DNA from: Gammaproteobacteria bacterium
GTDB lineage: Bacteria; Pseudomonadota; Gammaproteobacteria; JAJPIJ01
Direction of reading: 5' to 3'
Assembly (NCBI GenBank): GCA_041395385.1
Contig: JAWLAN010000006.1
Coordinates: forward strand, 398,548 to 462,547
Length of the DNA: 64,000 nt
Each line of letters opens with the position of its first letter. Position 1 is the stretch's first letter. Positions 11,315-12,649 of the stretch are shown here, one piece after another. A program made the position numbers and the translations under genes. Under the pieces are notes generated by a model. The model worked only from the letters and a program-made list of their open reading frames with translations. It was not told where the DNA came from and searched no databases.

Positions 11315-12649
11315 TTGCTCAAGGTTCTGGTCATTGACGACTCGCGCGTCGTGCGCAAGATGATGGTGGAGTCACTGCGCACGGAGTTCGCGGGCGCCGC
11401 GGTCGACGAGTACGACCCGTGCATCCAGGGATTCCCGGGCTCGGAATTCGGATGGTCGTATTACGACATCGTGTTCCTCGATTACAACCTCGGGCTGGCC
11501 GGCGAGGACGGCCTCACCTGGCTGCGCAAGTTCCAGAATTTCGCCGATATGCCACCGGTCATCATGCTGACCGAGGAGGAGCGCATCAGCGTCATCGTCA
11601 AGGCGATCAAGGCCGGCGCCAAGGACTACGTGCTGAAACGCGATCTCAAGAACGCGGATCTGGCCAACATCATCTACCGCGCGCTCGGGATCGAGGGCGA
11701 CGAGGCCGAGGCCAACACGCTCAACGAGATCCCGGCCCTGGAGGTGCCCACCGCGGCCACGGAGCGGACCCAGGGGCACGGCGAGAACGCCCCGGTCACG
11801 CAGCGGCACGAATCACTCGTGTCGCGCCGCAACGGCGCGCCGCAGGACACCATACGCGTACACATCCCCGGCTACCGCATCATCGCCCCGATCGCGCAAG
11901 GCGGCATGACCACGATCTTCCTCGCCCAGAGGGTCGAGGACGACCTGGAGATCGTCCTGAAGCTGATGTTCACGCGCGACCAGCCCGACACGCCGCTGTT
12001 GCGCTATTTCATGCAGGAATACGCGCTCATCTCCAAGCTCAACCACCCCTACATCATCAAGATCTTCGAGCGTGCGTTCGCGAAGGACTTTGCCTATATC
12101 GCCATGGAGTACCTGCCCGCGGGGAACCTGGTGGCGCGCATCCGCAAGGGCCTGATGCCGGACAAGGCGCTGCAGTACATACGCCAGATCGCCGAGGCGC
12201 TGGGAGCGGTTCACAACCTGAGCATCGTACACCGGGACCTTAAGCCGTCGAACATCCTGTTCCGCCAGAACGACACCGTGGCGATCACGGACTTCGGCGT
12301 GGCGCATTTCGCCGCCGGCATGAGTGGCATCGACGAGACGCAGGTTCTGATCGGCAGCCCCTCCTACATGAGCCCGGAGCAGTGCAAGCGCCGCCCCGTG
12401 GACCCGCGCAGCGATCTGTACAGCCTCGGGGTGGTGATGTTCGAGATGCTGACGGGGGGCAAACCGTACACGGGGCGCAGCATTCCGGAGATCATCGATG
12501 CCCACATCCGCGCCCCGGTACCTCGCCTCCCCGACGAACTGCGGCAGTATCAGGCGCTCATAGACGGCCTGCTGGCGAAGGACCCGGCCGAACGATTCCA
12601 GAGCGCGGGCGAGTTCATCGCCGGCCTGGAATGGATCTGCCAGGGCTGA
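11315..12649 (+). CDS. response-regulator receiver domain fused to Hanks-type Ser/Thr protein kinase
   Basis: N-terminal REC (VLVIDDSRVV...IVFLDYNLG...IMLT...VLKRD) followed by a kinase domain with HRDLKPSNIL catalytic loop, DFG and SPE motifs; terminal gene of the Che-like operon. Confidence 0.9.
   Translation: MLKVLVIDDSRVVRKMMVESLRTEFAGAAVDEYDPCIQGFPGSEFGWSYYDIVFLDYNLGLAGEDGLTWLRKFQNFADMPPVIMLTEEERISVIVKAIKAGAKDYVLKRDLKNADLANIIYRALGIEGDEAEANTLNEIPALEVPTAATERTQGHGENAPVTQRHESLVSRRNGAPQDTIRVHIPGYRIIAPIAQGGMTTIFLAQRVEDDLEIVLKLMFTRDQPDTPLLRYFMQEYALISKLNHPYIIKIFERAFAKDFAYIAMEYLPAGNLVARIRKGLMPDKALQYIRQIAEALGAVHNLSIVHRDLKPSNILFRQNDTVAITDFGVAHFAAGMSGIDETQVLIGSPSYMSPEQCKRRPVDPRSDLYSLGVVMFEMLTGGKPYTGRSIPEIIDAHIRAPVPRLPDELRQYQALIDGLLAKDPAERFQSAGEFIAGLEWICQG

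Follow-up and report, generated by a model that had tools for sequence, protein, structure and literature searches.

Within a 64,000-nucleotide stretch of a Gammaproteobacteria genome (assembly GCA_041395385.1, contig JAWLAN010000006.1, positions 398,548–462,547; this whole stretch is referred to here as the window), the forward-strand gene at 11315–12649 encodes a receiver (REC) domain and a Hanks-type, i.e., eukaryotic-like, Ser/Thr kinase domain in a single chain of 444 residues. At the sequence level we confirmed this REC-kinase as a fusion of an intact bacterial Ser/Thr kinase with an intact phospho-receiver. Its gene closes a row of seven genes with the same orientation (2674–12649). We propose, with a probability of roughly 65%, that it is a response regulator with an active Hanks kinase output and that it forms the terminal output of a Pil-Chp-like chemosensory cassette. 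We describe the cassette as being of the type IV pilus/alternative cellular function (Tfp/ACF) type, a likeness set by domain architecture and gene order. We suggest that this cassette puts out protein Ser/Thr phosphorylation and not motor control.

The open reading frame begins with TTG, ends with the stop codon at 12647–12649 and matches exactly the position and strand given in the first-pass annotation of this DNA. A Shine-Dalgarno-like AAGAAGG is found at 11300–11306, 8 nt before the start codon. The frame is clearly coding because its GC content is 0.90 at third versus 0.39 at second codon positions, in a genome of 67% GC; antisense frames overlapping 11315–12649 are the usual artefacts of high-GC DNA. 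The identical 444-residue protein is held at NCBI as MEZ5444558.1 from a Gammaproteobacteria metagenome-assembled genome (MAG), where it is named only 'protein kinase'.

The receiver comprises residues 1–124 (11315–11686), as delimited by Pfam, by family conservation and by an AlphaFold2 (AF2) model with pLDDT of about 90 in this part. Pfam Response_reg (PF00072) matched residues 4–109 with 53.9 bits (cutoff 30.2, E 2e-14), and positions 6–110 of the NCBIfam CheY model aligned to residues 2–109. In CheY, the active-site quintet consists of D12/D13, D57, T87 and K109. The first-pass annotation had described the corresponding residues as intact, and all of them were indeed present, i.e., the acidic pair D8/D9, the acceptor D56 (codon 11480–11482, motif FLDYN), T86 and K108, together with the switch aromatic residue Y105. 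In the AF2 receiver, five strands and helices 1, 3, 4 and 5 were modelled at high pLDDT, and helix 2 was a four-residue turn followed by a loop. This loop in place of helix α2 (11417–11464, residues 35–50) has the family consensus EYDP..G.P...F.W, with P41 and W47 in at least 90% of 33 aligned sequences, and it may be where the kinase domain or CheA makes contact.

The Hanks-type kinase domain comprises residues 181–444 (11855–12646), as assigned by Pfam, matches to StkP and PknB, Foldseek and conservation. Pfam Pkinase (PF00069) matched residues 188–429 with 155 bits (cutoff 31.7, E 3e-45). Compared with StkP and PknB by sequence (phmmer), this half of the protein gave E values of about 1e-38, and compared by fold (Foldseek) with PknB from S. 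aureus and with PknB and PknA from M. tuberculosis, it gave TMt values of 0.84–0.88. The motifs HRDLKPSN (306–313), DFG (326–328) and SPE (353–355), which had been listed as intact before, were all present. The kinase residues present are the VAIK Lys K216, the αC Glu E235, H306-R-D308 (D308 codon 12236–12238), K310, N313, D326-F-G328, S353-P-E355, D367 and the subdomain XI Arg R427. The Gly-rich loop, which is GFGGMS in PknB, begins with Ala and not with Gly (AQGGMT). No Pfam match to PP2C or HATPase_c was found in the REC-kinase protein, unlike the partner-switch regulators RsbY, HsbR and CrsR. For its kinase no NCBIfam model reached the cutoff, and the same was true for the DUF6976 protein and the Zn-ribbon repeat protein of the cassette described below.

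Receiver and kinase are joined by a linker (residues 125–180, 11687–11854) that is predicted to be disordered. About 55 residues of it (127–179) had an AF2 pLDDT below 50, and its length and sequence vary among relatives, where it forms gappy, unconserved alignment columns. The complete model (pLDDT 81) consists of a confident receiver (1–124) and a confident kinase (181–444) with a disordered tether between them. Among the structure matches, no solved structure contained a receiver and a kinase in one chain.

We searched 5.8 billion proteins for members of this family and obtained more than 120 full-length clusters of the same architecture; all counts given here refer to the window protein plus 120 of these clusters. 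They are 37–96% identical and 412–521 residues long, nearly all unnamed or automatically named, and stem mostly from Gammaproteobacteria or Chromatiales MAGs. Neither the protein cluster search nor NCBIfam returned a characterised close homolog. In the kinase half, K216, E235, H306 and D308 were kept in all 121 members, R307, N313, DFG, P354, E355 and R427 in 120, S353 in 119 and the central G196 of the Gly-rich loop in 117. In the receiver half, D8 and K108 were each kept in 113 members, and D9, the least conserved residue of the set, in 99. The T86 position held Thr in 109 and Ser in six members, the Y105 position Tyr or Phe in 117, and the acceptor position Asp in 108 (89%). From this conservation in both halves, we conclude that both are under purifying selection. 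Two other searches were less selective: scanning contigs with the full-length alignment used generic kinase motifs (HRDxKPxN, DxRSDLYSxG) and returned mostly unrelated kinases, only L001–L004 being full-length relatives, and a smaller receiver-only alignment (A3) used as search pattern matched mostly receiver-only fragments or other architectures.

The activation loop varied within the family. The position equivalent to PknB T171 was Thr in 108 of 121 members and Asp, Asn or Glu throughout the subclade of the window protein (at least 60% identity). In the window protein it is D340 (12332–12340, residues D340–T342), which may be a built-in phosphomimic. This replacement of Thr by Asp suggests that in the subclade the receiver, and not autophosphorylation of the loop, would be the main means of control.

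The REC-kinase gene is co-oriented with cheA and lies 85 bp 3' of it, so its placement directly after a CheA–REC hybrid, as noted earlier, was correct. The CheA-type hybrid (8416–11229, +) contains two histidine phosphotransfer (Hpt) stretches, one of them with a canonical HAIKG, followed by HATPase_c, a CheW-like domain and a C-terminal REC (Pfam; partial NCBIfam CheA match). The likely start of cheA is ATG 8455 or later; an ortholog is called at 914 residues. The spacer of 85 bp (11230–11314) holds a small hairpin, CCGCAGA-TAA-TCTGCGG, at 11270–11286. A pattern scan of this spacer revealed no terminator and no sigma-70 promoter, and the hairpin was rejected as a terminator; it also folded no better than shuffled sequences (z = -1.5).

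The cassette encodes the core components methyl-accepting chemotaxis protein (MCP), CheW and CheA together, the latter as a multi-Hpt protein with C-terminal REC. The CheW coupling protein (6439–6927, +, 162 residues) was assigned by Pfam CheW (E 4e-16). The MCP (6991–8385, +, 464 residues) has two transmembrane helices, a HAMP domain and an MCP signalling domain (Pfam, hydropathy); its transmembrane helices are only about 13 residues apart, so that it is devoid of a periplasmic sensor domain. Upstream of cheW lies the gene of a PilG-like response regulator (5404–6339, +, 311 residues; Pfam, AF2), with homologs that are often automatically named PilG. According to AF2, it consists of a receiver-like α/β domain (residues 23–129; motifs VALIGI, ILMVNADEP, PPSVLVS and YQVRRPL), a disordered linker of about 50 residues (136–186) and a canonical REC (193–308). 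This long-tether layout is common to the PilG-like regulator and the REC-kinase.

The two remaining cassette genes encode a DUF6976 protein and a Zn-ribbon repeat protein. The DUF6976 protein (4364–5401, +, 345 residues) matched Pfam DUF6976 with E 5e-140 and FIST_C below cutoff with E 0.004. It is 58–64% identical in all cassettes and is a candidate for the cytoplasmic sensor of the cassette. The Zn-ribbon repeat protein (2674–4350, +, 558 residues) is the product of the first gene and was defined by Pfam, its repeats, its orthologs and its conserved position. It matched Zn_ribbon_ISL3 with 28.8 bits (cutoff 25.5) and weakly an ISL3 HTH, without a DDE domain. It contains four tandem repeats of about 95 residues, with the consensus PPE.dP.W..LI.G......GLKMLLERvRLs.G..P....R.AaARvLRQYF.KhR.RH.aEL. 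Orthologs have two, four or five repeats, and their gene is always the first in the cassette. By its domains, the protein looks like the DNA-binding head of a domesticated transposase fused to a new repeat. The 'PPE[ST]' position of the repeat was rejected as a phospho-site, Ser/Thr not being conserved in the orthologs.

The full cassette recurs in relatives in the same order, ending with CheA-REC followed by the REC-kinase, and every component was confirmed by tblastn. The REC-kinases of these cassettes share 96–98% identity with the window protein (L090, L081–83), 60% (L085), 47% (L170, the cultured Methylohalomonas lacus, GCA_024808875.1), 46% (L086), 45% (L084, on a contig of 2.85 Mb), 41% (L089) and 39% (L172). 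The M. lacus cassette was reached via homologs of the PilG-like neighbour. Because the cassette recurs down to 39% identity, we conclude that the position of the REC-kinase after CheA is no accident of a single genome. Judged from these comparisons, the seven genes are passed on together across Gammaproteobacteria. The gap between cheA and the REC-kinase gene is 8 bp in L084, and the two genes overlap in L086 and L089. In the more distant cassettes a PilH-like single receiver is encoded between the PilG-like gene and cheW; it is absent from the window (6339–6439) and from the 96–98% relatives. Moreover, CheA has 914–937 residues and only two Hpt stretches in the window and these close relatives versus 1109–1412 residues in the more distant cassettes, a difference of about 200–500 residues. 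In all seven lineages examined, the cassette was devoid of cheR and cheB (PilK and ChpB) genes, and no pilus genes were seen among the scanned open reading frames of the window.

More distant family members also occur after CheA in chemosensory clusters of at least two other types. At locus L171, the gene order is MCP, X-REC, REC, CheW, CheA-REC, a 169-residue protein, CheW and then the REC-kinase. The contig L088 (1–21485) carries two REC-kinase paralogs. The first copy ends a cluster of CheY, CheA, CheW, MCP, ParA-like, STAS, CheR, CheD and CheB genes, of which the STAS protein would be a plausible target of Ser phosphorylation there. The second copy stands, like those in L098 and L102, between a group of MCP, CheA-REC and two CheW-like genes on its 5' side and a PAS hybrid kinase gene on its 3' side. 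A further member stands after CheA or CheW outside the seven-gene architecture (L091), and in L087 the genes next to the family member encode a REC-cyclase and an Hpt protein, with a ChpA cluster of the FimL type at a distance of 2 kb.

Phosphotransfer from CheA to the receiver of the REC-kinase is the best reading of these data because both halves of the protein are conserved and the REC-kinase gene recurs after CheA. The first-pass annotation had concluded from the gene order that a His-Asp phosphorelay controls Ser/Thr phosphorylation; comparative genomics supports this as a probable mechanism. In the pathway we propose, the MCP/CheW/CheA array would sense a cytoplasmic or membrane cue, which may reach it via the FIST-like DUF6976 protein. 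CheA would then autophosphorylate on an Hpt histidine, from which the phosphate would be passed to three receivers, i.e., the REC at the C-terminus of CheA, the PilG-like regulator and, at D56, the REC-kinase. Once phosphorylated, D56 would flip the T86/Y105 switch and alter kinase activity. The most likely route would be dimerisation of the receivers via their α4-β5-α5 faces, which would pair two flexibly tethered kinase domains in a manner like PknB-type dimerisation. As far as the model goes, the long, variable and disordered tether would fit such receiver-driven dimerisation better than a fixed inhibitory packing. 'Phosphorylation-controlled', as the kinase had been called before, could mean activation as well as inhibition. 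Candidate substrates, which the kinase would then phosphorylate on Ser/Thr, are cassette proteins, e.g., the Zn-ribbon repeat protein or components of the array, and proteins with genes outside the cassette.

Several points weigh against this proposal. Kinase activity, phosphotransfer and substrate phosphorylation are all predicted from sequence. The inter-domain arrangement of the AF2 model carries no confidence (pTM 0.60) and thus does not fix activation versus inhibition. Neither a PP2C phosphatase nor an FHA protein turned up among the scanned open reading frames of the window. The two other receivers of the cassette would compete for phosphate and could be the real outputs, in which case the REC-kinase would be a sink. 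Some distant family members (L002, L004, L097) have no CheA gene within about 8–10 kb, and two of these (L002 and L004) carry a degenerate acceptor. Finally, 13 of the 121 members (about 11%) lack the acceptor Asp, with Glu in nine (P0055, P0060, P0065, P0067, P0085, P0091, P0094, P0097, P0099), Ala in three and Asn in one. Three of them, P0048 (D to A), P0060 (D to E) and P0088 (D to N), remain in CheA clusters, P0060 ending the one at locus L171, so association with CheA does not strictly need phosphotransfer.

That such acceptor-less relatives stay in CheA clusters would be expected if the receiver were a docking or dimerisation module. In this case, it would anchor a kinase of constitutive activity at the CheA/MCP array or on a partner, with Asp phosphorylation having little if any regulatory importance. 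The acidic activation-loop residue in the subclade of the window protein, which suggests a pre-activated loop, speaks for this explanation as well, and the long flexible tether fits a role in localisation. We nevertheless consider it unlikely because D8/D9, T86, Y105 and K108 are retained along with the acceptor Asp in the window protein and 89% of its relatives; only the chemistry of phosphorylation and switching calls for this full set. Moreover, the nine D-to-E replacements among the 13 acceptor variants hint that the receiver functions in its phosphorylated state. D to E at the acceptor is a substitution used experimentally as a phosphomimic; it activates some response regulators, e.g., NtrC D54E, but not all.

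The kinase might also act back on its own array. It would then be a feedback or adaptation device that modifies the MCP, CheA, CheW or the PilG-like regulator in place of CheR/CheB, with the PilG-like regulator as the true output. The cassette itself encodes neither CheR nor CheB, the only cheR and cheV genes of the window lie with flagellar genes at 20.5–25 kb, and, within the cassette, kinase and PilG-like regulator are equally well conserved. Against these points stands the L088 family member at the end of a cluster that has CheR, CheD and CheB of its own, and no conserved Ser/Thr target site was identified. Feedback therefore seems quite unlikely to us; it departs from the proposed response regulator function in the target only and not in the mechanism of control.

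Kinases of the PD-T4-6 or Stk2 kind take part in anti-phage defence, and the PADLOC PD-T4-6 models matched residues 181–439 with E 1.6e-68; the mad6 model also matched, as did NCBIfam MADS6 in part. These matches cover the generic kinase domain only and, with 131.9 bits, fall far short of the NCBIfam cutoff of 460. The gene is instead embedded, as last member, in a vertically inherited chemosensory operon present in many genomes. No other cassette protein matched PADLOC, and the neighbouring genes have housekeeping or signalling functions and form no defence island. We hence rejected a single-gene defence kinase as very improbable. A pseudokinase or pseudo-receiver, i.e., a degenerate fusion without catalysis, to which the Ala at the start of the Gly-rich loop and the looped-out receiver helix α2 might point, was rejected for the window copy as hardly credible at all, since the catalytic residues are all present and 99–100% conserved in the 121 members, G196 is retained, the acceptor D56 is in place and the α2 loop is itself conserved in the family.

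Among known systems, the layout of the cassette is like that of Pil-Chp (PilG, PilH, PilI, PilJ, ChpA) and of the cyanobacterial Tax/Pix systems, with which it shares the order REC, (REC), CheW, MCP and multi-Hpt CheA-REC. Multiple Hpt domains together with a REC are typically found in CheA proteins of the Tfp and ACF classes (PMC10542144). Unlike Pil-Chp, the cassette comes without pilus genes, PilK or ChpB, and the window copy lacks a PilH-like gene and has two Hpt stretches only. Pil-Chp also has nothing that corresponds to the REC-kinase gene at the end of the cassette.

The Wsp system of Pseudomonas aeruginosa comprises the MCP WspA, the CheW proteins WspB and WspD, the CheA-REC hybrid WspE and the REC-GGDEF protein WspR. 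As in Wsp, a CheA-REC array is combined here with an enzymatic response regulator as proposed output, instead of a motor-binding CheY, and its gene stands at the operon end. In contrast to Wsp, this output is a Hanks Ser/Thr kinase and not a diguanylate cyclase. The cassette also lacks CheR and CheB, contains a PilG-like tandem receiver, DUF6976 and the Zn-ribbon repeat protein, and has an MCP without periplasmic domain.

Two regulators of RpoS, CrsR and CrsA, are encoded at the che1 locus of Shewanella oneidensis (PMC9855816). In CrsR/CrsA, as in HptB-HsbR-HsbA of P. aeruginosa, a chemosensory locus or His-Asp relay acts through a receiver regulator that controls Ser phosphorylation of a target, and we regard che1 CrsR/CrsA as the nearest published precedent for tying a chemosensory locus to Ser phosphorylation. 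CrsR and HsbR combine a PP2C with an RsbW-type (GHKL) anti-sigma kinase that acts on a STAS protein. Our enzyme, by contrast, belongs to the eukaryotic-like Hanks kinases, and genes for a STAS or PP2C partner are missing from the cassette.

In yeast, the Sln1-Ypd1-Ssk1 relay activates the MAPKKK Ssk2/Ssk22; receiver protein and kinase are two different chains, and activation comes from the receiver in its unphosphorylated form. There, as proposed here, the receiver of a His-Asp phosphorelay governs a Hanks-type Ser/Thr kinase. In the bacterial protein, unlike in yeast, receiver and kinase are fused, with a CheA array as the proposed source of input. With PknB and StkP, the kinase domain shares 28–31% identity (Foldseek alignments), the fold and the catalytic residues; it differs from them in having no transmembrane segment or PASTA sensor, in its N-terminal receiver input and, in the subclade, in the replacement of the activation-loop Thr by Asp.

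In the literature covered, from which the older response-regulator censuses (Galperin) were left out, we found no description of a receiver–Hanks kinase fusion, of DUF6976 or of such a chemosensory output. Reviews of bacterial Hanks kinases and of cross-talk between two-component systems and Ser/Thr kinases did not mention a receiver–Hanks kinase fusion either. The bare combination of REC and Pkinase may have been catalogued before and is to be expected in domain-architecture databases. Two-component or chemosensory signalling and Hanks kinase signalling are usually treated as separate, with occasional cross-talk; here, they appear to be hard-wired in one polypeptide. If the proposed control holds, Ser/Thr phosphorylation would join the known outputs of chemosensory arrays, i.e., motor switching, type IV pili and cAMP, cyclic di-GMP and transcription. 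The REC-kinase would then also provide a natural and genetically simple model for receiver regulation of a eukaryotic-like kinase. As the cultured M. lacus carries the cassette, this idea is directly testable.

A bolder interpretation, which we put forward tentatively and regard as possible but doubtful, is that the cassette represents a distinct and so far undescribed class of chemosensory pathway with Ser/Thr phosphorylation as its principal read-out. Its components would be the seven cassette proteins, among them a ChpA-like CheA-REC and an MCP devoid of a ligand-binding domain. The REC-kinase would be the 'CheY' of this pathway and, acting on the Zn-ribbon repeat protein or on other cassette partners by phosphorylation, would reprogram transcription or cell polarity. 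It would thus be a single-polypeptide bacterial analogue of the step from Ssk1 to the MAPKKK in yeast.

Downstream of the REC-kinase gene, the window continues with a convergent gene for a β-carbonic anhydrase (12672–13325, −), a gene for a MATCAP-family (DUF1704) protein (13281–14687, +) and a GGDEF gene on the reverse strand. A MATCAP-family gene is also found 3' of the cassette in L085, the relative with 60% identity. A 597-residue open reading frame at 12672–14465 (−) was dismissed as an artefact; the real genes there are those of the β-carbonic anhydrase and the MATCAP-family protein. Apart from the cassette, a flagellar and chemotaxis block at 20576–25037 contains cheR, cheV (CheW-REC), flgA, flgM, flgN and a gene for a YcgR-like PilZ protein, with cheR and cheV at 20.5–22.5 kb among the flagellar genes. 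An integrated element of 5.7 kb (25166–30933) is located at tRNA-Ala(cgc) (25166–25241), and the 46-bp 3' end of this tRNA gene (25197–25242) is perfectly repeated at 30888–30933. Between the repeats lie genes for a tyrosine integrase (25256–26365, −), a Rep_trans initiator (26547–27692, −) and an AAA_16 ATPase (28196–29536, −). The GC content of the element is 50–58%, compared with 67% for the genome.

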